A DNA stretch of 64,000 bases from Escherichia phage RudolfBernhard_Bas96 (PQ850623.1); one strand, 5' to 3'. Shown: positions 1,927 through 60,012, counted from the stretch's first letter. The notes: a model not told the origin generated them from the letters alone. Numbers and translations: made by a program.

Positions 1927-4197
1927 ATGGAACACCAAGACACTTTTAAGCCTTTACCAGACCCGGCTCAATCAGAGAAGCTAACGGACTGGAAGAAGGA
2001 ACCAAGTATCCAATTACTGAAGGGTGATTTGGAATCAGCTAAACCTGCTCACGATGCAATTATGGCCCAGATTCGTGAGTGGAATGACCTAATGGAAGTC
2101 AAAGGTAAAGCTAAACCCCCAAAGGTTAAAGGTCGTTCACAAGTCCAACCTAGACTGGTTCGCCGTCAGGCAGAGTGGCGATATGCTCCATTGTCCGAGC
2201 CGTTCCTCTCATCTAATAAACTCTTTAAAGTAACTCCAGTTACTTTTGAAGATGAGTTAGCTGCACGTCAGAACGAATTAGTTCTTAACTACCAATTCCG
2301 TACACAGCTTAATAAAGTAAAACTAGTGGATGATTACGTACACAGTGTCGTAGATGACGGTACTGGTATTGCTCGTATTGGTTGGGAACGTAAGACTGTT
2401 AAGATTAAAACAGAAACACCAGTCTTCCAGTTGTATCCAATTGAGAATCAGGAACAGGCAGATGTTCTTCAACAGGCTTTACAGCTCCAGGCTGAGAATC
2501 CTCGTGAGTATGATGAAACTATGCCGGAAGATATTAAAGAAGCTGTTAACTACTTTAATGAAACTGGAGAAGCTACCTATGCAATCCAGACAGGGGTTAC
2601 TGAGGTAGAAGTAGAGAAGGCACTGGTTAACAGACCTACTGTTGAAATGCTTAACCCCAATAACGTAGTTATTGACCCAAGCTGTAATGGCGATTTGGAA
2701 AAGGCTCTGTACGCAGTTATCTCGTTTGAGACATGCAAAGCAGACCTCATGAAGAATAAAGACCGTTATCACAACTTAGATAAGATTGACTGGGAAAGTT
2801 CTAGTCCTATAACTGACCCAGACCATGAGAGTAAAACCCCTAGTGACTTCCAGTTTAAGGATGCACTTCGTAAGAAGGTTGTTGCTTACGAGTACTGGGG
2901 ATTTTACGACATCAATGATGATGGTTCTCTGGAACCAATTGTTGCTACCTGGATTGGTTCTACTCTTATCCGTATGGAGAAGAACCCATTTCCAGATGGT
3001 AAATTACCCTTAGTAGTTGTTCCTTACATGCCTCGTAAACGCGAACTCTTTGGTGAAGCTGACGCTGAACTGCTGGGGGATAACCAAGCAATTCTTGGTG
3101 CAACTATGCGTGGGATGATTGACCTGTTAGGTCGAAGTGCAAATGGACAACGTGGTTATCCTAAAGGGATGTTGGATACACTGAACCGACGTCGATATGA
3201 CGATGGGCAAGACTATGAATATAACCCAATGCAGGGTAATCCTAGTCAGGCCATTATGGAGCATAAGTTCCCTGAGTTACCCCAGTCGGCAATAGTAATG
3301 ACTCAGATGCAAAACCAGGAAGCTGAATCACTAACTGGTGTTAAAGCATTCTCAGGTGGTGTAACTGGTTCAGCTTATGGAGATGTGGCTGCTGGTATTC
3401 GTGGTGCACTTGATGCAGCATCCAAACGTGAGATGGCAATCCTTCGTCGATTAGCTAAGGGTATGGCAGACATTGGTACTAAGATTTGTGCAATGAATGC
3501 TGTGTTCTTATCTGAGAAAGAAGTAGTACGTATTACTAACGAGCAGTATGTAGAGATTAACCGTGAAGACCTTAAAGGTAACTTCGACATTGAGGTTGAT
3601 ATTAATACTGCTGAAATTGATAACCAGAAATCCCAGGACTTGAGCTTCATGGTTCAAACATTGGGTAATACGGTTGACCAAACTATTACGTTATCTCTTG
3701 TAGCTAAGATTGCAGAACTTAAACGTATGCCTGACCTGGCTCATGAGTTACGTACTTGGCAACCACAACCGGACCCTATGGAAGAACAGCTTAAGCAACT
3801 GGCAATTCAGAAAGCACAGCTTGAGAATGAAGAGTTACAAAGCAAGATTGCACTCAATATGGCTAAGGCTAAAGAGGCTGCTTCTGCTGGTGACCTTAAA
3901 GACCTGGATTATCTGGAACAGGAATCTGGTACTAAACATGCCCGTGATATGGAAAAACAAAAAGCACAATCTCAAGGAAACCAGAACCTTCAAATAACTA
4001 AGGCATTGACAACACCTATTAAAGAAGGGGAAACTACCCCCAACATATCTGCAGCTGTTGGATATAATACTTTGACTAACGGGAACTCTATACCAGAACG
4101 TGATTTAGCTGCTCAGCAAGACCCGGCTTATTCACTTAGTTCCCAATACTATGACCCTCGCCAAGACCCAGCATCGGCTCTTGGCATGAACCTGTAA
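1927..4197 (+). CDS. Portal protein (N4 gp59-like)
   Basis: 756-aa ORF with AGGA RBS; size and position (after lysis genes, before scaffold and capsid genes) match N4 late-gene order; no motif check possible by eye. Confidence 0.6.
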
Positions 4198-4574: not shown

Positions 4575-5795
4575 ATGACTACGGAAGCTGCAACCACAGC
4601 TTCCGACATTCTCGCAATGTCGGATGATGAGATTCTGAATATGGAAGCCCCAGCAATTATCGCTGAGGAAGATACTTCCACTCAGAACAACCCAGAAACC
4701 AACGGCGTACAGACTCCTGATGAAGAAGTTGACACCCCTGCTGTTGAAGACCTACCAACCGAAGAAACCTCCCCTGAAGCCGAACCAGATGAAGAAGATT
4801 CAGCAAATACTTTAACTTCTGATAAAGTTGATGATAAAGTTGTTGACACAGAAGTTGATAGTAACGGTGAGCCGATTACTAAAGCTGAACCTTCTACTAC
4901 TGAACCAGGCCAGGAACAGGAAGAAGAAGGCAAACAGTCTGAAGGTCTGCCTGCTGACTTCAACTATAAGGAAGGTTACGAAAAGTTGATGGCTCCTTTT
5001 AAAGCTAACGGCAAAGTGATTACTCCCCGTTCACCGGAGGAGGCCATTAGCCTGATGCAGATGGGTGCTAACTATACTCGTAAGATGCAAGAACTAAAGC
5101 CTTACCGTAAGGTAATGCTGATGTTACAGAACAACGGTTTAATGGATGAGGATAAACTTTCTTTCCTTATTGACCTGGATAAAAAGAATCCAGAAGCCAT
5201 TAAGAAGTTGCTCAAAGACTCTGGTACAGATCCTCTGGACTTTAACCCAGATGAGGAAATTAACTACCAGGGTGGCAATCACCGTGTTACCGACACCGAA
5301 GCAGATTTTGCAACCGAAATTGACGACTTAAAGTCTACTCAAGAAGGACAAGCTACATTAGGTGTTATCGGCTCGACATGGGATGCTGCCAGTAAAGATG
5401 CTCTTTACCAGAATCGTGGCCTACTCCAGACTATTCACGAACAACGTGAGAATGGTATTTATGACACCATTGCAAACGAAGTGAACCGTCTTCAGATGTT
5501 AGGCCAGATTCCGGTAGGTACTCCGTTCATTCAGGCTTATAACCACGTCGGTAACCTCCTTGCACAACAAGGGGCATTTAACCGAGTGGCTAAGCCAGAA
5601 TCGGTACAAGCAGTCAAGCCAGTGGTTCAGCCGGTAGTGCGTGTAGCACAACCTAAGCAGACTCTGGCTAACAGTGAGCAAGCTAAAGCAGCTTCCCTTA
5701 ATCGGGCTGCTACACGTAAAGCAACACCTATTGTAAACCCACTCGCTATGAGTGATGAAGATTTCGCTAAACTCCCAGTACCGGGTAGTCTTTAA
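4575..5795 (+). CDS. Acidic scaffold-like protein (putative scaffolding protein)
   Basis: 406 aa; highly acidic, Pro/Glu-rich N-terminal third; directly upstream of the capsid gene; GGAG RBS. Confidence 0.4.
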   Translation: MTTEAATTASDILAMSDDEILNMEAPAIIAEEDTSTQNNPETNGVQTPDEEVDTPAVEDLPTEETSPEAEPDEEDSANTLTSDKVDDKVVDTEVDSNGEPITKAEPSTTEPGQEQEEEGKQSEGLPADFNYKEGYEKLMAPFKANGKVITPRSPEEAISLMQMGANYTRKMQELKPYRKVMLMLQNNGLMDEDKLSFLIDLDKKNPEAIKKLLKDSGTDPLDFNPDEEINYQGGNHRVTDTEADFATEIDDLKSTQEGQATLGVIGSTWDAASKDALYQNRGLLQTIHEQRENGIYDTIANEVNRLQMLGQIPVGTPFIQAYNHVGNLLAQQGAFNRVAKPESVQAVKPVVQPVVRVAQPKQTLANSEQAKAASLNRAATRKATPIVNPLAMSDEDFAKLPVPGSL

Positions 5796-31050: not shown

Positions 31051-31542
31051 TTACTTAATCTTTTGTATAGCATGGGGTAAGCCATGCTCAATGATATAGG
31101 CATTTCTCGCTTCCAGAGCTTCAACCTCGGAATCAAAATTACCTACAAAGATTCTTTCATTACCATTGCAGATTCTTGCTGACCATTTTTTCTTAGTGGT
31201 ATTTAAACCTATTCCTAAGTAGGTAGCTTTACTGGTTATTCTTTTTCTGGAATTAATGGCCTGAGTTGTTCTAGTTGCCCATCTCAGATTTCCTGGTACA
31301 TACCCCAGTGAACCATCTATTCTGTCTAAAGTAAGACCCAGCCTTTCCCTGTCTGCATAACCATCTAATGACTCTAGATAGGCAGCAAACACTTTGAAGT
31401 CAGAGAACTCTTCTGCTCTAGTTATCCCCCTAGCCCCATAGTTTTTATAACTAGCGTGCTTAGGGTTGTCACATCTCTGTTTAATGGTTAACCATGTGTA
31501 ATACAGAGGATGTAATTCATTACCGAATCTTTTCTTACTCAT
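31051..31542 (-). CDS. HNH-family homing endonuclease with AP2 DNA-binding domain (degenerate HNH)
   Basis: 163 aa; LDRIDGSLGYVPGNLRWAT (HNH_3-like with His replaced) plus C-terminal AP2-like YLGIGLNTTKKKWSARI...FDSEVEALEARNAY; flanked by about 130-145 bp of noncoding sequence on each side. Confidence 0.55.
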   Translation of the reverse strand: MSKKRFGNELHPLYYTWLTIKQRCDNPKHASYKNYGARGITRAEEFSDFKVFAAYLESLDGYADRERLGLTLDRIDGSLGYVPGNLRWATRTTQAINSRKRITSKATYLGIGLNTTKKKWSARICNGNERIFVGNFDSEVEALEARNAYIIEHGLPHAIQKIK

Positions 31543-41232: not shown

Positions 41233-43284
41233 TTACTTAGCAGCCTTGACCAGCTTAGTAGCTAACTTAGCTTCTTCTTCAGTCAGTCCCATTGCAGTGA
41301 ATGACTTCTTGGCATGACGCTTATAGTCTTGCAGAGCATGGCCTTTCTGATAGTCAGAGTAGGACGTATCGTTCAGGATGCTACGCAGGTTATCAACGTG
41401 TTTACCAGACGGTGCTACCTTAGTGGCAGTAGCCGAGCGGTGAACCTTAGCTTGCTTCACTGGTTTTGGTTTGCCGATAGGTTTAGCTGTGTAAGTTGTA
41501 CGTACATCTGCAATCTTAGCCACCACATCAGAACTAACACCTAAAGCAGCCCATGGCTTACGAGCCTTACCTCGCATTTCCACAAGTAAATCAGCAGCAG
41601 CTAATTTATCTTCCGGGGAAGTAGCGTTAAGGAACTCTTTGATCAGTTCCTGAATTTGTTCTTTCACAGTAGGAGCCTTATTAACAATAGGTTTAAGGTC
41701 AGTAGCCTTCACTGGTTCAGCAGCTACAGCTTCATTTAGTGACTCTTCCATATTCAGTGCTTCTTTATTAGCAACTGTACGGAATTGTTCTACGGAACCG
41801 GATGAGAGATTGGTGTATTTGAGGTTAGTACCACGATGCCCACCAACCATAACAAGTGTGGTAGGTGAACTATGGTTCCCAACGATGGCATCGTTAAGTA
41901 ACTTCTTACCCACTTCTGTCTTAGACAGGTAGATACCATTGTTAACGTTGCAACGTTCCTCTTCCGGTAGTTCAGCAATAATGTGATACGCAGCTACACG
42001 CATCTTATTAGTGTTGTACTCAGGAACAGCAAATACATCTTCTGGTGCTACTTTACCAAGGATAGTTACGTTACCACCGAAGGTACGGATGTAACTCATG
42101 GATGCTACGTGCAGGCCGTTGGAGCAGTCCTGACGACGGTCAGGGTCTACCAGGTCTTCTCGCACCTGTACTTTACAACCTACCCACTGACGAATGTTGC
42201 CTGAGTGACAGTCAACGAATACACGTTTACCATTTTCTTCACCACTGAACTTAAGGCGTTTCAGGAACAGGATGGAACCATCATCAGCAATAGGCAGTTC
42301 AGCAGTTTCCATGAACTTCATCAGGTCTTCTACTGAGTGCAGACGGTCTTTAATAACCGGAGCCAGACGTTCAAGGAACTTAGTAAAGCCCTTATAGTCT
42401 TTTAGCTGGGCAGACTGACGCAGGTGACGTTGCAGGTTCTCAACTCCAGGGATAACCCCATTGTTGGTAACAGCAACAACCACTTCATCTTCCTTCACAT
42501 CAGTGTGAAAGTAAGCATCATCGGTACTGATAGCACCTAATGCAGCCAGCTTCTCAGAAGCAGCAGCCAACTTATCCTGGTTCGTAGTTTTAGCTACTTC
42601 CACATAAGGCAGTGGTGTTTCCTCACGGTTGGTAAATACAACATGTACACCTTTGATGTTCTGGGCTTGTTTAGCAAACTCACCCATTTCATCGTCAGAT
42701 ACTGCACGAATTCCAATTGGCCATTCTTGTGAAAGAGTATGGTTGGTATGGTCATAACCCCAGCCTAGTACGTCGTTAATAAAACGAACCAGTGCAGGAT
42801 GGTTATGGTCTTTGCCCCAGCCAGTAACCCACATCAGATTGTCACGTTTGTCATAGTAACCATCTGCTACCGTTACTTCTGGTTCATTAGCCTGGACAGC
42901 CAGAAAAGTATCCATAGCTTTAGACACTAGCGTCTTAGTAGGATTACCTAGCTTAATATCTGAGACGGTACGGGCTGGTGAAACACCTGTACCATCTTCG
43001 AAGAACTCTTTAAGTTTAGCTTTAGCTATCTTGAAGAAACGGACGAATCCGTTGGTGTTCTTTTCTGCTTCCAGGTATTCAGTACGTAGTTCTACTTCTG
43101 GTGCAATGTTTACTTCTATTTGGTCTTGGGTAGTACCCAGACCTTTAGTCTGTGCTTCAGATACAATGCGAGCAACCCGTGGGTCGCTCTGAGGATATAC
43201 AACCGTGGAGCCATCAGGCTTCCACAGTGTGAGGTTTCGACTGTCAACTGCCAGTGCGATGATAGAAATCAATTCGATTTTCAT
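41233..43284 (-). CDS. rIIB: rIIB-like protein
   Basis: 683 aa, immediately downstream of the rIIA-like gene; assignment rests on the conserved rIIA-rIIB pairing in N4-like phages. Confidence 0.4.
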   Translation of the reverse strand: MKIELISIIALAVDSRNLTLWKPDGSTVVYPQSDPRVARIVSEAQTKGLGTTQDQIEVNIAPEVELRTEYLEAEKNTNGFVRFFKIAKAKLKEFFEDGTGVSPARTVSDIKLGNPTKTLVSKAMDTFLAVQANEPEVTVADGYYDKRDNLMWVTGWGKDHNHPALVRFINDVLGWGYDHTNHTLSQEWPIGIRAVSDDEMGEFAKQAQNIKGVHVVFTNREETPLPYVEVAKTTNQDKLAAASEKLAALGAISTDDAYFHTDVKEDEVVVAVTNNGVIPGVENLQRHLRQSAQLKDYKGFTKFLERLAPVIKDRLHSVEDLMKFMETAELPIADDGSILFLKRLKFSGEENGKRVFVDCHSGNIRQWVGCKVQVREDLVDPDRRQDCSNGLHVASMSYIRTFGGNVTILGKVAPEDVFAVPEYNTNKMRVAAYHIIAELPEEERCNVNNGIYLSKTEVGKKLLNDAIVGNHSSPTTLVMVGGHRGTNLKYTNLSSGSVEQFRTVANKEALNMEESLNEAVAAEPVKATDLKPIVNKAPTVKEQIQELIKEFLNATSPEDKLAAADLLVEMRGKARKPWAALGVSSDVVAKIADVRTTYTAKPIGKPKPVKQAKVHRSATATKVAPSGKHVDNLRSILNDTSYSDYQKGHALQDYKRHAKKSFTAMGLTEEEAKLATKLVKAAK

Positions 43285-43288
43285 CAGA

Positions 43289-45850
43289 TTATTTACCTTT
43301 CAGTTTATTTAGACGATTACGGTAGAGGGACTTAAACCCAGGAATATCCTCTGGATTCTTCTTGAGATGTTTAACTAAACTACCTAAGTCTAGGCTCTGT
43401 AGGATGTCACCAGCACTCCAGCTGTAACTGAATAGTCCTTTGTACTCGTTAAGTACTTCGAAATGCTTGTGCATACGAGGATTAACCATCCTTACATATG
43501 GCTCTAAGACATCTACTGACTTAATGAGGCCCAGCTCAACAAGTCTCTCTTTGTTACGTGGATGGTTTCTTAGGAAGTCACATGCCCATTCATATTCTGG
43601 TTTAAAAGTCAGACTCTGTAATGGTTTAAATGTTAGACCCAGGATGTCGAGGATTTCCCAATATTCTCTGTCATCCAGACCTACGTATTCCAGAACACCG
43701 ATACGCTGTTCAGTGGCATACTTCTTAAATCCCTTGCTGGTAATAACAGACATCAATTCATTAAGACGAATATCGTCAATGTGAATAGCACCACGGCGTT
43801 TGGCCTTGTTAACTTCGATTTGATTACGACAGACAACAGTCTCTGCTTTCATCTCATCAGATAACTCCCACCATTTCCACATGGTTCCAATCTTGGCAGT
43901 TTCTGGTCTACCAGAAACAACCTGATTGGCTAGCACGTAGTACTTTGGCAGTTCTACTTCAACGAACCCGTATTTCTCATGATAGATTGGATCAGCAAAT
44001 TCACTCCGAATAAGTGGCTTGGATTCCCAATCACCACTCGTATTTCGTTCACGAATAGTACCTAGTACAGCATTCAATGAAACCAGTGCATTAGTTTTAC
44101 CTCCTGCTTTGGTTTTATTGGCAGCTATTGTCTTAGCACGCTTCTCAGCAGCTATCTTAGCTTGTTCTCTGCGGAAGTTAGTTGGCTTGTCCCACTCATT
44201 ATACTGAGTAAGGTCAATTACCCGATAACCCATAGCAGTGAACTTAGCTACAGCTTTTTCTGCTTCCCCTTTCTTAGGACTAACAACGTGAACAAAAGCA
44301 GTACGCTCCAGGTCACCTCGGTTGTATTCTGGGAAGTATGAGAAAGAATCTGCACAGTCAGATAAACGACGAGTAACTACAACGTTCTTAGTAGTGAATA
44401 TGCCAATACTCTGGTGGGAGTTATTGTATATCCTAAAGTAATCAGTGAGTTTACCTTTTACTAAGTCAACACGGTTACCCTGGTTCATTATGTAACCAGA
44501 CCACTTAATACCTGTAGCTTTTAAAGCAGCAAGCTGAGGTAGGTGCAGATGACGGTATACTAAATCCTGGAATAAGGATGTACCGTCTGCACGGGTATCC
44601 TTAAGAGCACTCATAGCTTTACTATACAGTTTCTTAAGACCTGCATACTCAGGGCGAGCTAATAATGCCTTATTGGATAGATTACGCCAGTGCTTAATAT
44701 GATGCTTACGTTGCTTAGCCCACAAGCTAGAGGACATATAGCGTTGAACGATTCTGTCTGTAACAGCACCCAGGAAAGACGGATATTCCCAATAGCGAGT
44801 AGAAGATTCGGAGGCATACTCTTCAACCTGCTTAATGGCTTCAGGAATCTTAGCCTTAATCTCTTTCTCCATACGGTCTACTAAATCTACACATAGAGCA
44901 GTAATACCATCGTCGGTTAACTTCTGGTTAGATAGAGTTTCACGACTAGGGGCAATAGCTAAGGTGTCTGGTGCAGCCTGAACTACTAAAGTCTCAGCAC
45001 CAATGATATTCATAAAGTTGAGAATAAGACCTACAGCCTCTTCACTAGCTGGACTATATACTATTGGGTACATTACGTTACCGTAGCGAACGAAGATGTT
45101 ACTGCTACCCATATAGCTTTGATACCAGCTATCAGACATATCATAAGAACCAGGTTCAAATGACATACCTAGTGTTTTTAGTAGAGTGTAGTCACCTTGC
45201 TGAATACTATTGCCTGTTTCTTCACGAATTAATTTGGGAAGACTAAGCTCAGCCTTAATCTCTCCGTTAAATACAATTGATGTGATGTAATGCACAAAGG
45301 TATTTACATCATGCTTACCCAGTTGGAATTTAACTTCCAGACCAGATTCCTCAGTAGGAATACCAGTAATGATAGGAACAATACCCGGTTTACCATCATT
45401 CTCAATTGCAGCCTTAGCTACGTTATATACCGACATCTTTCCTTGGTTCCATGAAGTAACCTGGAAGCTATCTGTATAAGCAAATGGGGATTTACAACCC
45501 AGACCAAAGCCACCAGTAACACTACTGTTGGACTTCTTAGTAGATGCACCATATACACCATAAATGGAACCAATGAGTTCATCCGGGATACCGTTACCAA
45601 AGTCACGGAAAGTAATAAAATTGTCAGTATCAATGGTGATACGGATAGGAGTATCAGTATTACCTGCTTCAATATGAGCATCCCAACTGTTACAGATAGT
45701 CTCACGGACTACTGCCAGAGTAGGGTTGTTATATAAGGAAGTACTTAATACGTGAAAGAATGCCGGGTCATCAGAGATGCCAAAGGCGATTGCTTCTTTG
45801 CCACCCAGTGTCGCTGAAGTGGCTGATTGATTGGTATCTGCAACTAACAT
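43289..45850 (-). CDS. rIIA: rIIA-like protein (N-terminal GHKL ATPase fold)
   Basis: 853 aa; N-terminal GHKL motifs (ETICNSWDA, RDFGNGI, GGFGLGCKS) typical of rIIA proteins. Confidence 0.6.
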   Translation of the reverse strand: MLVADTNQSATSATLGGKEAIAFGISDDPAFFHVLSTSLYNNPTLAVVRETICNSWDAHIEAGNTDTPIRITIDTDNFITFRDFGNGIPDELIGSIYGVYGASTKKSNSSVTGGFGLGCKSPFAYTDSFQVTSWNQGKMSVYNVAKAAIENDGKPGIVPIITGIPTEESGLEVKFQLGKHDVNTFVHYITSIVFNGEIKAELSLPKLIREETGNSIQQGDYTLLKTLGMSFEPGSYDMSDSWYQSYMGSSNIFVRYGNVMYPIVYSPASEEAVGLILNFMNIIGAETLVVQAAPDTLAIAPSRETLSNQKLTDDGITALCVDLVDRMEKEIKAKIPEAIKQVEEYASESSTRYWEYPSFLGAVTDRIVQRYMSSSLWAKQRKHHIKHWRNLSNKALLARPEYAGLKKLYSKAMSALKDTRADGTSLFQDLVYRHLHLPQLAALKATGIKWSGYIMNQGNRVDLVKGKLTDYFRIYNNSHQSIGIFTTKNVVVTRRLSDCADSFSYFPEYNRGDLERTAFVHVVSPKKGEAEKAVAKFTAMGYRVIDLTQYNEWDKPTNFRREQAKIAAEKRAKTIAANKTKAGGKTNALVSLNAVLGTIRERNTSGDWESKPLIRSEFADPIYHEKYGFVEVELPKYYVLANQVVSGRPETAKIGTMWKWWELSDEMKAETVVCRNQIEVNKAKRRGAIHIDDIRLNELMSVITSKGFKKYATEQRIGVLEYVGLDDREYWEILDILGLTFKPLQSLTFKPEYEWACDFLRNHPRNKERLVELGLIKSVDVLEPYVRMVNPRMHKHFEVLNEYKGLFSYSWSAGDILQSLDLGSLVKHLKKNPEDIPGFKSLYRNRLNKLKGK

Positions 45851-46880: not shown

Positions 46881-46886
46881 TTAGGT

Positions 46887-47123
46887 TTACTTACGATTCC
46901 GTCCTACGAATTGTAATAGACGTTCCTTAGCATCATCCTGTTCCTTGATAGCTACATAGTCGCGTGCATAGTAATACACACACCATAAGCCAATAGAACA
47001 TGCAGAATATCGAGCCACTACGAAGAACATCTCTTCCAGGCTCTGTGCACCATGCAGTGTAAATACAAATTCCAGAACCAGGATGATACTTATAAACATT
47101 GCTTGAATAGCTAAACGTTTCAT
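46887..47123 (-). CDS. Small membrane protein
   Basis: 78 aa with two hydrophobic helices; ATGA overlap with thyX. Confidence 0.45.
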   Translation of the reverse strand: MKRLAIQAMFISIILVLEFVFTLHGAQSLEEMFFVVARYSACSIGLWCVYYYARDYVAIKEQDDAKERLLQFVGRNRK

Positions 47124-48064
47124 TCTGTAATTGTTTCTCCGGGAATTAGTTTACGGAATTGGATGAAATCCAGTAAGTTGCCTGAATATAGCTTACCTTC
47201 ACGGTCCATTGAAGTAACACCCTGTTCCCAGGTTAATGGGTTCTGGTTGTTAACAAACTTGGTACTGAAGTCCATCGGGGTAGCCTGATGTTCAGTAGGT
47301 GATGCATGAATTGGCTGTTTCTCTACCAACTTAGCAAACAGAACAAGATCATCACTGATAGTAGATGGCTTGCCTTCAAAGTTGTTATAGGAGGCACGAG
47401 CACAACGAGCAGCAGAGACTTTAAGCAGTAGACCTAAAATTTCTCCATCACTTGGTTCATCACGAGTAATTCGTTGATATTTGCAATGATTGTAAGCATT
47501 AGCACAATCAGTATTGCGAATATAAGGCAGATGCCAGTCACCTTTCTTGAGCTTTTGCGGAACAGATTCTTCATGAGCCTTCTTCATGGCCTGAGCCAGT
47601 AAACGGATTTCCGGTTGGGCATCTTCATGGTCACGTAAGCCATAGAAGTTAGCCCAGCTAGTTGAAGTTACCACTACACGGATATGTGTGAATGGTTCCA
47701 GAATACGGTTAACAATCTGCTTATGTACTTGTCCACGACGCAGTTGTTCAGCATATACAGCAGCAGCAGATGCAGCGTTATCCCAGATAAACTTAGCATC
47801 CTCAATCTCCATAGGAGTGAGTTCTTCTTCTGCTTGCATACCTTTCTGATTCTTGCCCCAGTGACTTGGCATCACTGGTTCATTACGAACCTGCTCGATG
47901 AACTTAGACGTAGGTATAGCACGACTGCTTGAAGCATTGCGGTTGAATACACGGTGAGTCATAAACTCACTGTGAATGAATCGGGGGTAGACCAATTCAA
48001 AGGTAGTAATACGAGTACCAGTTGCATGATGAACGGAATCTGCAATGACAGTTGCCTTAATCAT
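47120..48064 (-). CDS. thyX: Flavin-dependent thymidylate synthase (ThyX-like)
   Basis: 314 aa; HRVFNRNASSSR fits the ThyX signature RHRxxxxxxxSxR. Confidence 0.55.
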   Translation of the reverse strand: MIKATVIADSVHHATGTRITTFELVYPRFIHSEFMTHRVFNRNASSSRAIPTSKFIEQVRNEPVMPSHWGKNQKGMQAEEELTPMEIEDAKFIWDNAASAAAVYAEQLRRGQVHKQIVNRILEPFTHIRVVVTSTSWANFYGLRDHEDAQPEIRLLAQAMKKAHEESVPQKLKKGDWHLPYIRNTDCANAYNHCKYQRITRDEPSDGEILGLLLKVSAARCARASYNNFEGKPSTISDDLVLFAKLVEKQPIHASPTEHQATPMDFSTKFVNNQNPLTWEQGVTSMDREGKLYSGNLLDFIQFRKLIPGETITE

Positions 48065-48507
48065 TAGAATGACCTTAGATAGTTGGTTATACCACTACGG
48101 CTTTCTGTAATCCTCTTGGCCTGAACATACACCAGCTTAAACTCACTACGAGGCAGTTCCTGTAATATTGCTATACCTTCAGTAAGAGCCACAGAACACG
48201 CTACAGCGGTTTCTTTTTTAAAGGAGTACAAGTCTTCATACATGAGGGCTTCATACTCTTTCCGGAGCATACAGAGAGCATCTCTTGCCTTATCACTTAC
48301 TTCTTGTGAACCAGCAGACATAGCTAAGCTGTATATGATAAAGACTTGTTCGAAAACAAAGTCCAGTAATCTATCAGGGGTATTAGTCCCCATAAATAAT
48401 TTTGTTGCGTAGGAACGGGCCTTACGGTTGAGTTCATACTCATCCTCTATACCTTTATTATAAAGAACAGGATTCCGTTCCCTTTTTCTTAGAAATGGGA
48501 TACGCAT
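48064..48507 (-). CDS. Hypothetical protein
   Basis: 147-aa ORF; stop/start abut thyX. Confidence 0.45.
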   Translation of the reverse strand: MRIPFLRKRERNPVLYNKGIEDEYELNRKARSYATKLFMGTNTPDRLLDFVFEQVFIIYSLAMSAGSQEVSDKARDALCMLRKEYEALMYEDLYSFKKETAVACSVALTEGIAILQELPRSEFKLVYVQAKRITESRSGITNYLRSF

Positions 48508-48890
48508 TAGTATTTACTACCTCTTCTATACCAAGGGTAATGATGGGTAGTGCTCTTACCTTTAAACACATCCTTAGTACGAGGATTCTTTTGTATTTGA
48601 GCCAGGTAAAGATGCATTTCGTCACACGGACTAAGCCAGAACTTATCTATGATTCGGTCTACCTTAGATTTTAGATGAGGCTCAGGAGGGATGTATGGGA
48701 AAACATTAAATGATCTACTAGTCCATCCTTTCTGAATAGCAGCTTGCATTGCTGCGTAAACATCAGGACCAATTCCATTTTCTTCTACTTGGTCATGTAT
48801 AGTTTTGCCTAAAGTAAGCATTGCAGTTTGTTCCAGTTTACTTAAGTCCAGTCCATATAAGATAGACTTACCATTTTGTCTGTTTGACAT
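48507..48890 (-). CDS. Hypothetical protein
   Basis: Track ORF extends to 48992 through a terminator hairpin; ATG at 48890 lies just downstream of the hairpin. Confidence 0.45.
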   Translation of the reverse strand: MSNRQNGKSILYGLDLSKLEQTAMLTLGKTIHDQVEENGIGPDVYAAMQAAIQKGWTSRSFNVFPYIPPEPHLKSKVDRIIDKFWLSPCDEMHLYLAQIQKNPRTKDVFKGKSTTHHYPWYRRGSKY

Positions 48891-48904
48891 AAGAGTACCT
48901 GTAA

Positions 48905-48932
48905 TTAAAAAAGCCCACGGGTTAGGTGGGCT
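48905..48932 (-). terminator. Rho-independent terminator
   Basis: Stem AGCCCAC/GTGGGCT with 7-nt loop; TTTTTTAA on the - strand. Confidence 0.6.
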
Positions 48933-49007
48933 TGGATTAGGAGATGGATAAGCAATGAGCTGGAAGTAACTTCCACAAGCACCACTATACAATGATGCTT
49001 AGGTTAG

Positions 49008-49304
49008 TTACTTATCAGACTGGCTCGTTTGAGACACGTTGTACTGGTTCCCACTACCAACGTTAACGATTGTAGTCTGAGACTGTCCTTTATTAGACAG
49101 TGACCAAATCAGTGCTACTACCCAGAAGACTAAAGACCAGCCTAATACGATATTGAGTACACCAATGCCCCACTTAGAGACATGGCCCCGTGCAAAAGCA
49201 ATAATGGTAGGGATAAGGTATACAGCTAGTGCAAATAAAAGAACGAGGATTGCTGCTAAAGATTCCATGATGGTTCCTATGTGGGGTTGAGTTAGTTTCT
49301 TCAC
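49008..49304 (-). CDS. Membrane protein (two TM helices)
   Basis: 98 aa; helices LAAILVLLFALAVYLIPTIIAF and IGVLNIVLGWSLVFWVVALIW. Confidence 0.5.
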   Translation of the reverse strand: MKKLTQPHIGTIMESLAAILVLLFALAVYLIPTIIAFARGHVSKWGIGVLNIVLGWSLVFWVVALIWSLSNKGQSQTTIVNVGSGNQYNVSQTSQSDK

Positions 49305-49341
49305 AAATAGCCCAACTATGCTGGGCTATTTAGGCAGCTAC

Positions 49342-49554
49342 TTACTCATCTAAAGCTTTACGAACGTAACCACGTACTGAACGATAGCTTTCTTTTGCAG
49401 TTACAGTTCGTCCATCAATGAGATGAATTACAGCACCAGCCGGAGTTTCATCTACATCTACTACGTTAGTTGCAACAATAGTTTTACGCTGGGTACTGTC
49501 AACAGGAGTTACTTGAAATACAGACATGTTGTTTCCTTTAGGCATTTCTGCCAT
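49342..49554 (-). CDS. Hypothetical protein
   Basis: 70-aa ORF. Confidence 0.4.
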   Translation of the reverse strand: MAEMPKGNNMSVFQVTPVDSTQRKTIVATNVVDVDETPAGAVIHLIDGRTVTAKESYRSVRGYVRKALDE

Positions 49555-50104
49555 GGTTGGGGTTATAACCGAAAAGTATTTCGGCTTCTTTTCTTGTGGC
49601 TACTGCGTCATCTAACTCAGCAAACCATCCCAGGTGGATTTTATTCCCATTATCATAAATGGAAACATTCCATAAATTATGACGTTTACTATAGCTTACT
49701 CCGTGGTAACCACTTGTATTATTCGAGCTTAATGCCCTATTTTTTAAGTTATCTGACCTTGACCGGCTAAATAAATTAAAATGCCTGTTATTAGTGCGTA
49801 CACCATCATCATGGTCTATATCTTCTGGCTCAGTACCATGAAGCATTTTCCAGATAATACGGTGAGCATAGTAAAACTCACCATTTAATGTTCCGCGCAA
49901 ATAACCATTTTTAGATAATGAGGCTAGTGCAGGTTTCCCTGCCCATGCAGAATTCCATACATTAGCTACATGTTCTGGACTTCTTAGTGGGTTGCTGTTA
50001 AATGTCCACTCTGGTCTTACCTTCCAGGTTAATCCCCCAGTTAGTGGGTCATAATCTAAGCAAGCTAGTAACAACAAGCGATTTGGTAAAACCTTTGCTT
50101 TCAT
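49538..50104 (-). CDS. HNH homing endonuclease with AP2 domain
   Basis: 188 aa; HNH core IDHDDGVRTNNRHFNL and AP2-like GYHGVSYSKRHNLWNVSI...GWFAELDDAVATRKEAE. Confidence 0.7.
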   Translation of the reverse strand: MKAKVLPNRLLLLACLDYDPLTGGLTWKVRPEWTFNSNPLRSPEHVANVWNSAWAGKPALASLSKNGYLRGTLNGEFYYAHRIIWKMLHGTEPEDIDHDDGVRTNNRHFNLFSRSRSDNLKNRALSSNNTSGYHGVSYSKRHNLWNVSIYDNGNKIHLGWFAELDDAVATRKEAEILFGYNPNHGRNA

Positions 50105-50107
50105 TTT

Positions 50108-50614
50108 TTACTTACTTTCCCTAGCCTCTACCGGCATATTCGGTTGATTATTGTACTTGCCATTGTAATTAGCAGGCTCTTGAACCAGATGAAATAATAC
50201 TTGAGCTATCCCAGCACCAGCCGGGATATGCAGTTTCTTGCGACCTTGATAGACCAGTTCGAGGGTAAGATACCCTTTCCATCCTGGTTCTATTACGGTA
50301 TTGAACACTGATAATGCACGCCTTGCCCAGGTAGATTTATCGTGAACGATTGCTACACAGGAAGGGGACATGTTGAACTTCTCAATTGCTGAAGCCAATG
50401 CGAATTTACCGAAGTGGCGTTTAACAACCCCAGCATCGACAGTCTTCACCATTGGAATCAACCCAAATAAGCGATAGAAGGTGATGTCTTGTTTGATACG
50501 AATATCATAACCGGCTTCACCTAATCCATAACTTACACCATGCTCGGATACCTTACGGTCTGGTACATCCAGCAATTGAGATGAACGGTATAGAGAATTA
50601 CCATTAACAACCAT
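50108..50614 (-). CDS. dcd: dCTP deaminase-like (dUTPase superfamily)
   Basis: 168 aa; VIEPGWKGYLTLELV resembles the dCTP deaminase/dUTPase signature. Confidence 0.5.
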   Translation of the reverse strand: MVVNGNSLYRSSQLLDVPDRKVSEHGVSYGLGEAGYDIRIKQDITFYRLFGLIPMVKTVDAGVVKRHFGKFALASAIEKFNMSPSCVAIVHDKSTWARRALSVFNTVIEPGWKGYLTLELVYQGRKKLHIPAGAGIAQVLFHLVQEPANYNGKYNNQPNMPVEARESK

Positions 50615-51789
50615 TATTTCATTCCTTTAGGGATGTGAACTACCCCCCCAAAAGGTACGGTAGCATTAGGATTATTCAGAACACACCAGATGATAGGGAT
50701 ATCAAATGGCAATTCTTCCATTGGACGAACATACATATCGGAGAATACGATTGCAGCGGTTGGCTTATTCTTAATAATCCATTCACGCACTGGCTCAAGG
50801 TTTGTGCCACCACGACCAGTAATCTTAATCTCTTCAAAAGTATCTTCTTCAGTGATGTCTATTTCTTCTTGGATAATATCGTCGAAGGTAATAAGGGTCA
50901 TCTTCTTAGGATTGAACTGGCTCTTAACGTAGGCAACCTCTGAGTTAAAACGCAGAGAGTCAGCACTACTAATAGAACCAGATACATCCTCAAAGTAGGC
51001 TAAGTGTCGTAAGCGTCCTTCATCATCTTCCAGCGATGGTAGATAGATATCAGTGAAACGACGGTTAGGTCTGGCCCACGTATAGTGTGTATCATCAATG
51101 TCGGTAAAGAAGTTCAGCAGGACTTCCTGCCAAGGAACCACTGGTTTAAGGAATTGGGTAATTACCTCTTCCATACGACCAGCACCCTTACCTGGCATCA
51201 TTCCACCAGCCATCTTCTGGCTTTGCATTGCACGAACTACGTTGTTGACAACAGCGCCCTGGGACTGCCCCGAAGAGGGGGCTTTCATGTCGCCAGCAAG
51301 ACCTGCTCCAGCACCCCCTGACGGCTTCTGCCTTTTCTGAGGGTTCTTCATCAAGTCGTCGTAGATGTCTTCTTCGACCCATCCTTTATATTGAGGATCT
51401 TTGCAAATGCCTTCGTCAATACCGGTGAACTTGTAACCATCCTCTTCTAACTGAAGGTTAATGAAGTGGTCACATGCCTGGTTCCAGACTTCCGGGTCAC
51501 GGCTTCCACGACGGATGCCATGTAGATATGCCACATGCCAGAGTTCGTGCATTAGCACTGTTTCTCTTGTATCGGGACACATCCATATAAAGAAGTCTGG
51601 GTTGAAATGGAGTTCTATCCCATCAGTACATGCAGTGGGACAGTCTTCACGTTTCCATGAGAACTTAAGACTACACAGCAGTGAACCAAAAAACGCTGCA
51701 CTACGTCCGAGAAAGGCGTTAGCTTGGATCCTGTCGTACTCACGCATGAGTTGTTCATCACTAAGTGTGTGCTGAGGTATCTGGTTCAT
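50614..51789 (-). CDS. VWA-domain protein with N-terminal HExxH metallopeptidase-like motif
   Basis: ATG at 51789 (track start 52023 overlaps the AAA gene by 227 nt); HELWHVAYLHG motif; MIDAS-like DVSGSIS. Confidence 0.5.
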   Translation of the reverse strand: MNQIPQHTLSDEQLMREYDRIQANAFLGRSAAFFGSLLCSLKFSWKREDCPTACTDGIELHFNPDFFIWMCPDTRETVLMHELWHVAYLHGIRRGSRDPEVWNQACDHFINLQLEEDGYKFTGIDEGICKDPQYKGWVEEDIYDDLMKNPQKRQKPSGGAGAGLAGDMKAPSSGQSQGAVVNNVVRAMQSQKMAGGMMPGKGAGRMEEVITQFLKPVVPWQEVLLNFFTDIDDTHYTWARPNRRFTDIYLPSLEDDEGRLRHLAYFEDVSGSISSADSLRFNSEVAYVKSQFNPKKMTLITFDDIIQEEIDITEEDTFEEIKITGRGGTNLEPVREWIIKNKPTAAIVFSDMYVRPMEELPFDIPIIWCVLNNPNATVPFGGVVHIPKGMK

Positions 51790-51796
51790 GTTGTGA

Positions 51797-52849
51797 TTAT
51801 CCGTGAATGTAACGAGAGATATTGGCAGCAGCCTTACGCCACTCAGGGGTAGCCTGAATTTCTGGTAATGCTCTGCCCACTGTACGGAAGTACAGAATCT
51901 TATGGGTGAACGTTTTAAAGCGTTCAATGTACTGAAGAACATCTGTGAAGTTATCTTCAGTAGTTTTGTTAGCCAGATGGTTAACGGTAGCCCAACACAG
52001 GTTATTATCTTCAGGCAATGCACAGCCCAGAGGGTCTTTGACTACCTTCTCAATCGTAATCATACGATTGTATACCTGAGTGAACTGAACAAACTCTACG
52101 GCCTTACCTGGTGTAACAAAACCGCTGTAGTACAAGGAATCTTCATCAGGCAGAGCACCTTCTGGTTGGTTCTTGAGGTCTTTGTTAATGAAGTCCCAGG
52201 TACGTGGGCAGCAGAATGTCTTGTTCTTATGGGCGGGGTCGAAGTCGTGTAGATAGCCAGGGTTAGCATGTAAGAATGCAACCAGACGCTCATCCCATTC
52301 TTGCGGAATCATTACGTCTTCAACAAAGATGTCGAAGTTAAGTTCCATTTCAAAGTGAACAACACGAGACTGCATTGCAGTACCCAGTGGGTTAACGATA
52401 GCACGGTCAGTAGCTTTGTTACCGGCACAGATAATCATCACATTAGGGTGAAGTTTTTTCTGTCCAGTCATACGGTCTAGAATCAGTTTGTATGCAGCAG
52501 CTACTACTTCTTTCTTAGCTGAGTTGAACTCATCAAGGAACAGGAGCCAGCCATTATAACCTTCTGGTACTTCATCCCCCTCGATAGGGAATAAGTCAGC
52601 AAAGGGAATAAACTCTGCACGGTCACCTTTACGGAATGGTAGACCAGACAAGTCTTCCGGGGCAGAAGTAGACAGACGATGGTCAATCAGCTTCATACCA
52701 AATTCTTCTGCAACAGAACGAATAATTGCAGACTTACCCATGCCTGGTGATGAAGTCAGGAATGGTACGTTACCTGCTTGCAAGGCACGGATAATAAAGT
52801 TACGGGCTTGGCGTGTATTACATACAGTCAAGGAGTCAATGCTCGCCAT
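51797..52849 (-). CDS. AAA+ ATPase (MoxR-like, paired with the VWA protein)
   Basis: 350 aa; Walker A SPGMGKS, Walker B LLFLDEFN. Confidence 0.6.
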   Translation of the reverse strand: MASIDSLTVCNTRQARNFIIRALQAGNVPFLTSSPGMGKSAIIRSVAEEFGMKLIDHRLSTSAPEDLSGLPFRKGDRAEFIPFADLFPIEGDEVPEGYNGWLLFLDEFNSAKKEVVAAAYKLILDRMTGQKKLHPNVMIICAGNKATDRAIVNPLGTAMQSRVVHFEMELNFDIFVEDVMIPQEWDERLVAFLHANPGYLHDFDPAHKNKTFCCPRTWDFINKDLKNQPEGALPDEDSLYYSGFVTPGKAVEFVQFTQVYNRMITIEKVVKDPLGCALPEDNNLCWATVNHLANKTTEDNFTDVLQYIERFKTFTHKILYFRTVGRALPEIQATPEWRKAAANISRYIHG

Positions 52850-59538: not shown

Positions 59539-60012
59539 TTAATCCTTACCATGATTAGAGTGGAAACCATATTCATTGTTAGCTAACTCTCTAGCTTCTA
59601 CAGCTTCGTCGAAAGTGTTGAATCTACCTAAATGCTTTAGCTTACCATTAATCTTTATACGAACTCTCCATTTACCAGCTTCATATCTTACTCCCGTTGC
59701 ACCCGACATATTATTAGAAGCTCTACTTCTATTACGATTGTTATCTTGGGAAGATACTGCCCTTAGGTTTTCTAAACGGTCATCTGTTCGTATGTGATTG
59801 ATATGGTCAACCATATAACCGTCAGGCAATTTACCGTTGTGCATTTCCCAGATTATAGTAGCTGCCTTAAGATGTCGGTATTTTACTTGGACATATACAT
59901 ATCCACTGTACGTGTCGAAACTTCCAGCAATATCCCCACTTTTAGCTCTGCCACTACTAACCTTCCAGTAGAGTTTGCCTTCACGGTAGGAGAAGAATTC
60001 ATGCCAGTCCAT
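59539..60012 (-). CDS. HNH homing endonuclease with AP2 domain
   Basis: 157 aa; HNH core VDHINHIRTDDRLENLR; AP2-like GVRYEAGKWRVRIKINGKLKHLGRFNTFDEAVEAR. Confidence 0.7.
   Translation of the reverse strand: MDWHEFFSYREGKLYWKVSSGRAKSGDIAGSFDTYSGYVYVQVKYRHLKAATIIWEMHNGKLPDGYMVDHINHIRTDDRLENLRAVSSQDNNRNRSRASNNMSGATGVRYEAGKWRVRIKINGKLKHLGRFNTFDEAVEARELANNEYGFHSNHGKD

Follow-up and report, generated by a model that had tools for sequence, protein, structure and literature searches.

A ThyX-like protein of apparently permuted segment order and a putative dcd-linked homing endonuclease in an N4-like coliphage gene block

Escherichia phage RudolfBernhard_Bas96 (PQ850623.1) was analyzed over a stretch of 64,000 nucleotides (nt), hereafter the window, to which all coordinates refer. 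Its minus strand carries a gene for a ThyX-like protein, a gene (dcd) for a dCTP-deaminase-like (Dcd-like) protein and, next to the latter, an HNH endonuclease gene (Table 1). An earlier note on this DNA had described these as a nucleotide-metabolism module for phage-directed supply of deoxythymidine triphosphate (dTTP), interrupted by an HNH/AP2 gene. The coordinates it gave coincide exactly with minus-strand boundaries of the three open reading frames (ORFs), and domain, structure or family searches returned matches for every family it named. The ThyX, DCD and HNH patterns are not chance resemblances.

A megablast search with positions 47000–50700 against 50,697 phage records yielded 81 related records, nearly all from Escherichia/Shigella Gamaleyavirus (G7C-like, N4-like Schitoviridae). 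The closest relatives, E20 and PhAPEC7, share ~92% DNA identity with the window, and Gamaleyavirus genomes overall 85–92%; the window phage is a Gamaleyavirus. Every gene of the region lies on the minus strand, and the window ORFs with their domain matches reproduce the minus-strand order of the relatives: AAA ATPase (N4 gp24), VWA-like/DUF2201 (gp25), dCTP deaminase (gp26), gp27, Imm, gp28, gp29, flavin adenine dinucleotide (FAD)-dependent thymidylate synthase (gp30), small genes and rIIA. The ThyX-like and dcd genes, labeled thymidylate synthase and dCTP deaminase in ~80 GenBank relatives, are direct homologues of gp30 and gp26 of N4 and Gamaleyavirus G7C, functions that are themselves annotation-level. 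Compared with the N4/G7C block, the window has an additional HNH gene and an exchanged dcd 3′ end.

Table 1. Features of the locus, in window coordinates
Feature	Position	Strand	Evidence and remarks
MazG-like nucleotide pyrophosphohydrolase ORF, 152 residues	40235..40693	-	PHROG 671; adjoins Dda/PIF1-like helicase gene
ThyX-like gene (N4 gp30 type), 314 residues	47120..48064	-	Pfam Thy1, PHROG 85 and fold
gp29-like gene, 147 residues	48064..48507	-	PHROG 9867, E 3e-88, function unknown; N4 gp29 homologue according to the PhAPEC7 annotation
gp28-like gene, 127 residues from an internal ATG	48507..48890	-	PHROG 12812 on residues 35–161 of the long ORF; function unknown; relatives annotate 384 nt
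Terminator-like hairpin with T-run, between Imm and gp28-like genes	48911..48933	-	Consensus scan; PhAPEC7 terminator annotated at the same position
Imm superinfection-immunity membrane protein gene	49008..49304	-	Pfam Imm_superinfect, 59.3 bits; PHROG 1039
gp27-like gene, 61 residues, directly downstream of the HNH gene	49342..49527	-	PHROG 7594; function unknown
HNH_3/AP2-like putative free-standing homing endonuclease gene, 188 residues	49538..50104	-	HNH_3, AP2-like fold, site linkage
Foreign (putatively co-converted) 3′ tract of dcd (final 48 nt), linked to the HNH gene	50108..50155	-	Identity drop versus relatives
dCTP-deaminase-family gene (dcd, N4 gp26 type), 168 residues	50108..50614	-	Pfam DCD, PHROG 1663, PDB matches

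The ThyX-like protein matches Pfam Thy1 (PF02511) with 47.8 bits (E 1.8e-12; gathering cut-off 24.8) and PHROG 85 ‘thymidylate synthase’ at E 3e-114. The Thy1 match covers only profile positions 60–190 of 191, a span that in the Pfam/TIGR alignments maps to residues 21–169. The HRxxxxxxxSxR signature cited in the earlier note is present as H37-R38-x7-S46-x-R48; set against the full ThyX motif RHRx7SxR, the window protein reads T36-H37-R38-x7-S46-S47-R48, the first Arg being replaced by an invariant Thr and the remainder being present and invariant. An AlphaFold model (predicted local distance difference test score, pLDDT, 86; predicted template modeling score, pTM, 0.85) retrieved exclusively ThyX structures among the top 50 PDB matches in Foldseek (probability 1.0; template modeling (TM) score by target 0.40–0.58, with T. 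maritima entries at 0.5–0.58). The window protein has its fold in common with canonical ThyX, as represented by T. maritima TM0449 (PDB 1O26/1KQ4). In its natural order, the protein reached a best PDB match by sequence of only E 0.16.

The C-terminal 145 residues of this protein are strongly conserved (e.g., SAARCARxSY and HASPTEHQATP) though they lie outside the profile coverage, and the C-terminal 140 residues alone gave no Pfam match. We built an un-permuted construct in which residues 175–259 are moved in front of residues 18–174. With this rearrangement, the Thy1 match improved from 47.8 bits to 63.8 and its coverage reached profile positions 13–190, whereas control constructs with the segment reversed (46.5 bits) or shuffled (46.4 bits) showed no gain. 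Three further family members gained 20.7, 16.7 and 22.5 bits over their cores when un-permuted, so that the gain amounts to ~16–22 bits in four of four members, with the start of coverage moving from 60 to 12/13. A profile of 15 re-ordered constructs matched T. maritima ThyX in the PDB at E 1.3e-7, with one aligned stretch crossing the artificial junction (construct residues 27–116 to chain residues 18–102); the natural-order family profile found no PDB match at E ≤ 0.01. Canonical ThyX places an N-terminal alpha1-alpha2/HxSxxEH segment before the core, whereas in the window protein this segment (HxSPxEH) lies after the core at residues ~205–259, and ~90 extra residues are present. The sequential Foldseek alignment takes in only ~158 of ~216 target residues, which is what a permuted order would lead one to expect. 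These comparisons indicate that the ThyX-like protein has a permuted segment order, in which the canonical N-terminal helices with the FAD-contacting Ser/His/Glu follow the core; the moved segment would be spatially equivalent to the canonical helices.

Mapping against T. maritima ThyX separates retained from replaced positions. Within the moved segment, S30, H53, T55, E58 and H59 correspond to S225, H253, S255, E258 and H259; within the core, H79, R80, S88, R90, N169 and R174 correspond to H37, R38, S46, R48, N139 and R144. The window protein thereby keeps the canonical HR...SxR motif together with equivalents of S30, H53, E58, H59, R90, N169 and R174. Unlike canonical ThyX, it has R78, E86, Y91, N163, R165 and H178 replaced by T36, A44, A49, T133, T135 and D148, respectively. 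T36 and A49 are invariant in the family and T133 and T135 nearly so, while the A44 and D148 positions vary.

These replacements bear on an alternative function, in which the ThyX-like protein would carry out a different flavin- or folate-dependent pyrimidine modification, or act on another substrate, and feed DNA modification rather than bulk dTTP. Such a role would fit a protein that is permuted, that scores below the ThyX equivalog cut-off and whose subfamily has lost R78, E86, Y91, R165 and H178, is large and stands well apart from canonical ThyX, as the natural-order profile search illustrates. It fits poorly with the retention of residues that bind flavin and the phosphate of deoxyuridine monophosphate (dUMP), namely H79, R80, S88, R90, R174, S30, H53 and E58, and with the co-occurrence of a dCTP-deaminase-family gene that would supply the dUMP precursor. 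N4-like coliphages are not known to us to have modified DNA bases, which also counts against DNA modification, an explanation we consider very unlikely. On another reading, suggested by the position of the FAD/NADPH-side helices after the core and by the altered cofactor or substrate contacts, N4-type ThyX-like proteins would be an undescribed topological ThyX variant that handles flavin, reductant or substrate differently or even catalyzes a different pyrimidine C5 reaction; we consider this quite unlikely.

The permutation extends well beyond the window, to a large subfamily associated with phages. A profile search of 1.84 billion representatives returned 3,990 clusters (50% identity) at E ≤ 1e-30, mostly of 270–345 residues. 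All ten long family members tested match Thy1 only within profile positions 53–190, none reaching into the N-terminal third, and three to five of them bear inteins. The permuted order therefore appears to be a trait of the whole N4-type ThyX-like family (~4,000 clusters) rather than specific to the window. No description of a permuted ThyX was found in the literature covered (subscription papers excepted), which speaks only weakly for novelty. Because ThyX serves both as a target for antibacterial drugs and as a model of methylene transfer by flavin, a naturally permuted form whose contacts are altered could shed light on its mechanism. The permuted topology is the sole feature of this locus that might surprise a specialist.

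Two further observations concern the family at large. Fusion partners were considered as a hint to function and dismissed, the long members holding inteins and not metabolic domains. Among these members (550–650 residues), P0238, P0254, P0277, P0295 and P0338 contain inteins, with Intein_splicing and HNH domains in three and LAGLIDADG in the two others, of which only P0338 scores above threshold; the inteins are located near the conserved HR...SxR region or further downstream. Homologues P0092, P0094, P0095, P0098 and P0109 from other phages carry an N-terminal extension of 25–33 residues (MxRIPF(L/Y/F)KPRKK...) that resembles the N-terminus of the window gp29-like protein (MRIPFLRKRERN), and may reflect either a deletion/fusion involving gp29 or a common basic leader peptide.

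The dCTP-deaminase-like gene proposed in the earlier note is supported by domain, family and structure matches. Pfam DCD (PF22769) matches the protein with 56.6 bits (E 4e-15; cut-off 27), PHROG 1663 ‘dCTP deaminase’ at E 1e-55, and solved dCTP deaminases match at E 1.5e-11 (4dhk) and E ~1e-10 (3km3). Aligned with these two structures, the protein displays the motifs KS94TwAR98 and EPgWkGylTLE119 and the G152-K-Y-x-N-Q lid (GKYxxQ). S94, R98 and E119 correspond to the catalytic residues S111, R115 and E138 of E. coli Dcd. The Ser/Arg and ‘TLE’ motifs and the ‘GKYxxQ’ lid are common to the trimeric dCTP deaminase/DCD-DUT family (E. coli 1XS1, B. thailandensis 4DHK and M. tuberculosis 2QXX). Compared with this family, the window protein is shorter (168 residues), falls below the TIGR02274 cut-off and is encoded by a gene with 14 mosaic codons at its 3′ end.

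The same protein might instead be a bifunctional dCTP deaminase-dUTPase, or mainly a dUTPase, and then make dUMP directly, so that neither host Dut nor MazG would be needed. A secondary Pfam dUTPase match (24.9 bits) and weak NCBIfam dUTPase matches point in this direction, as does the presence of M. tuberculosis-type and archaeal enzymes of the trimeric family among the PDB matches. Bifunctional archaeal and mycobacterial Dcd enzymes are short, like the window protein, which we count in favor. The DCD score lies far above that for dUTPase, however, as does that for TIGR02274 relative to the dut model (75 versus 16 bits), and the protein has both the Ser/Arg motif and, within ‘TLE’, the Glu that is catalytic in deaminases. 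Sequence by itself does not separate mono- from bifunctional members, and we regard dUTPase activity as possible but rather unlikely.

The HNH gene encodes an intact protein with a Pfam HNH_3 match of 47.2 bits (E 1.7e-12). D97, H98, N106 and N122 do not vary among 38 homologues, the most distant of them at 37% identity. In the AlphaFold model (pLDDT 93), the C-terminus forms a three-strand-plus-helix unit whose top PDB fold matches are AP2 domains (AtERF1 1gcc: TM score 0.65, root-mean-square deviation 1.2 Å over 49 columns, probability 1.0, E 0.03–0.07). Of the HNH/AP2 assignment of the earlier note, the HNH part is backed by the domain match, and the fold matches suggest an AP2-like C-terminus. 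Pfam AP2 (PF00847) itself is sub-threshold (13.8 bits versus 33.3; E 0.077); some homologues carry a precomputed PF00847 match. The protein has no meaningful sequence relative in the PDB, and the closest GenBank phage proteins are ≤46% identical. With a G+C content of 0.39, the gene falls just short of the window mean (0.43), a difference too small to serve as evidence for foreign origin.

The HNH gene is absent from the dcd/gp27 site in 81 of 81 related GenBank phage records, where the megablast match splits around the gene, and blastn with the HNH region alone matched relatives only over the 39-nt flank, and unrelated HNH genes over a patch of 74 nt. Its ATG lies 3 nt past the dcd stop, so that it abuts the deaminase gene as the earlier note had stated, and its stop adjoins the ribosome-binding site (AGGAAACAAC) that precedes the gp27-like gene. 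This site comes directly after the dcd stop in G7C, ST4 and contig L005, and the gp27-like gene is ~95% identical to those of PhAPEC7 and E20 up to its ribosome-binding site. Because the HNH gene fills precisely the interval from the dcd stop to the following ribosome-binding site, neither neighbor is damaged. The ‘interruption’ of the earlier note holds in the sense that a gene has been inserted between dcd and the gp27-like gene; no gene is split, and a split dcd is ruled out by its full length of 168 residues, as in relatives.

The dcd gene itself is mosaic. Its first 459 nt are 92–96% identical to HNH-less relatives, whereas the last 48 nt are only 50–60% identical (Fisher p 3e-8 to 6e-17). 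Over this tract, identity to the HNH-carrying contig L006 is 97.9%; it is 75% to the more distant HNH-carrying L007, whose remaining dcd is only 82% identical. At the protein level, HNH-carrying dcd alleles have the tail KYNNQP(N/D)xPV in common, compared with KYQNQE(D/N)KPV in HNH-less Gamaleyavirus and KYMNQENKPV in L005. The break starts at GKYxNQ, a lid motif conserved across the Dcd family, which the window protein keeps. A short hairpin at 50130–50144 (ACCGGCATATTCGGT read on the plus strand; the minus-strand mRNA could fold likewise) lies within the foreign tail ~25 nt upstream of the HNH start codon and, speculatively, might modulate HNH translation.

Linkage to dcd recurs outside the window. 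Metagenomic HNH homologues at 98, 80, 68, 65, 62 and 59% identity each follow a DCD-family gene directly on its 3′ side, in six of six contexts with otherwise different neighbors, for example DNA polymerase, two small genes, dcd and HNH in L010; a 50%-identical homologue is not at dcd, being located among tail genes of an unrelated phage. L006 and three contigs like it carry the gene at the dcd/gp27 site; L005, whose ThyX is 98% identical to that of the window, lacks it and has a different HNH gene between the ATPase and VWA genes, as in G7C.

The HNH gene appears to be a recent mobile intergenic insertion between dcd and the gp27-like gene. Because of its absence in relatives, precise junctions, linked mosaic tail, site linkage, polymorphism and intact protein, we read it as a putative free-standing homing endonuclease targeting dcd. 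It would be genetically independent of the dTTP pathway, a selfish element using dcd as a conserved landing site: its product would cut HNH-less dcd alleles near the C-terminal ‘GKYxNQ’ lid codons, and the gene would spread by recombinational repair, bringing its own cleavage-resistant dcd 3′ end. Like known free-standing phage homing endonucleases (T4 Seg/Mob; HNH_3-AP2 proteins of GAP32 and Sulfitobacter phages), it is a short ORF in an intergenic position next to a conserved gene of nucleotide metabolism, presence/absence-polymorphic, linked to a polymorphic tract in the neighboring gene and of HNH_3 plus AP2-like architecture; unlike them, it has no close GenBank counterpart, and its homing is one we infer from sequence. 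The insertion is a new instance of an already known element type.

A less active origin has been weighed as well, in which the gene would be a remnant in decay, or would encode a nuclease or DNA-binding factor since domesticated, having been acquired through ordinary recombination, whether illegitimate or homologous. The indirect case for homing, the sub-threshold AP2 match and the occurrence of other HNH genes at nearby sites in relatives, in an area that may simply tolerate insertions, leave room for this view. It is difficult to reconcile with a full-length ORF whose catalytic D-H...N...N residues are invariant across distant homologues, with strict linkage to the dcd 3′ end in every otherwise different context, or with a sharp mosaic tract flanking the gene and presence/absence polymorphism among near-identical genomes. 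We hold a remnant or domesticated factor to be highly improbable and retain the dcd-targeting homing endonuclease.

No dcd-linked homing endonuclease or insertion site at the dcd 3′ end in N4-like phages was found described in the literature covered (subscription papers excepted). This HNH_3/AP2-like lineage appears dedicated to phage dcd 3′ ends, with a clean linked mosaic tract at the ‘GKYxNQ’ lid codons. It provides a ready-made system for studies of homing and target choice in Schitoviridae, and dcd-linked homing would account for local mosaicism that otherwise confuses phage phylogenies.

Genes dcd, thyX and mazG are listed as DNA-synthesis or DNA-precursor genes of N4-like phages (PMC11934525, PMC4837373), and the dTTP supply put forward in the earlier note corresponds to the standard annotation of these genes (PMC4837373, PMC11934525). 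In the pathway suggested by these family assignments, the Dcd-family enzyme would deaminate dCTP to deoxyuridine triphosphate (dUTP). Conversion of dUTP to dUMP would fall to host Dut, to the Dcd-like protein itself, should it have intrinsic dUTPase activity, or perhaps to the MazG-like pyrophosphohydrolase. The ThyX-like flavoenzyme would then methylate dUMP to deoxythymidine monophosphate (dTMP), the net effect being a higher dTTP supply for the replicating 43% G+C genome. Taken together, the locus is probably best explained as a block of early/middle genes conserved among G7C-like (N4-like) coliphages, with Dcd/ThyX-like dTTP supply, a permuted ThyX-like protein and a separate selfish homing endonuclease. 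The dcd/thyX pair is routine in N4-like phages and already annotated in many relatives, and therefore adds little as a metabolic finding.

The MazG-like ORF, which the earlier note had placed further left, matches PHROG 671 ‘nucleotide pyrophosphohydrolase’ at E 3e-35 and the MazG-like PHROGs 12019 and 2144 at E ~5e-6. Pfam PRA-PH is sub-threshold (13.1 bits versus 21.3; E 0.13), and an EExxE motif (LEEVAEM) is visible in the translation. The MazG-like identity is thus a tentative one, drawn from PHROGs only.

Several points weigh against the overall interpretation of the locus. The ThyX-like protein scores 47.6 bits on NCBIfam TIGR02170, below the equivalog cut-off of 87.9, and the un-permuted construct still reaches only 64.2; the Dcd-like protein scores 75.2 bits on TIGR02274 (cut-off 92.8). 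Family membership is secure for both, but exact activity is not, because both fall short of these cut-offs. The permuted order accounts for the restriction of profile matches to two thirds of the ThyX-like protein and for its failure to reach equivalog cut-offs. With R78, E86, Y91, R165 and H178 replaced, its cofactor handling or chemistry could differ from that of canonical ThyX, and the Dcd-like protein could be mono- or bifunctional. Literature searches found no activity measurement for the N4-type ThyX/Dcd-like subfamily. On the genetic side, the proposed cleavage site is deduced, and the divergent dcd tail could stem from ordinary recombination with a distant phage instead of homing-driven co-conversion.

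The gene layout likewise tempers the term ‘module’. Both nucleotide genes do lie in one region; they are ~2 kb apart, with the HNH, gp27-like, Imm, gp28-like and gp29-like genes in between, that is, four unrelated small genes besides the HNH gene, and a terminator-like hairpin. Terminator-like hairpins place dcd-HNH-gp27-Imm and gp28-gp29-ThyX-gp30.1 in different units, a further argument against a single module. A further minus-strand terminator-like hairpin is located at 46882–46861, where PhAPEC7 also has a terminator. Sigma-70 promoter-like sites were not enriched (9 found versus 9.8 expected), as expected because middle genes of N4-like phages are transcribed by a phage RNA polymerase.

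Among the neighboring genes, the stop of the gp29-like gene overlaps the ThyX-like start, and its product has no Pfam match and no meaningful PDB sequence relative. Just downstream of the ThyX unit, rIIA-like (853 residues, HATPase_c_3, PHROG 2979) and rIIB-like (683 residues) genes occupy 41233–45850 (minus strand), as in N4/G7C.

Other HNH_3 genes occur in the window and its relatives. A second one at 59539–60012 (minus strand; 157 residues, 62.5 bits, 36% identical to the first) lies near the RNAP1 subunit gene and is found in only few relatives (U1G and PGN829.1, 84–85% query coverage) while missing from most (66–68%); it looks like another presence/absence-polymorphic homing endonuclease. 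An ORF at 31051–31542 has no Pfam match, and its part 31075–31338 (minus strand) is weakly similar (tblastn, E ~1e-6, 26–35% identity) to the C-terminal AP2-like part of the relatives’ HNH proteins. Relatives carry HNH_3 genes between ATPase and VWA (L003, i.e. G7C gp24.1, at 5340–5751; L005 at 2371–2850) and between VWA and dcd (L007–L009 at 2997–3473). Because of these two further sites, the ATPase-to-gp27 block (3 kb) can be considered a homing endonuclease hotspot in N4-like phages.

The VWA-like gene upstream of dcd was first delimited mechanically as a GTG-started ORF at 50614–52023 (minus strand, 469 residues) running into the end of the ATPase gene; judging from relatives and PHROG/Pfam matches, its true start is an ATG near 51789 (391 residues). 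The VWA-like/DUF2201 metallopeptidase-like protein so defined (50614–51789, minus strand) matches Pfam DUF2201_N with 187.7 bits and DUF2201 with 116.2 bits, with no HNH domain reported. PHROG 1314, to which it belongs, bears the label ‘HNH endonuclease’, and because of this label several GenBank relatives annotate the gene accordingly, in what looks like a propagated mislabel.

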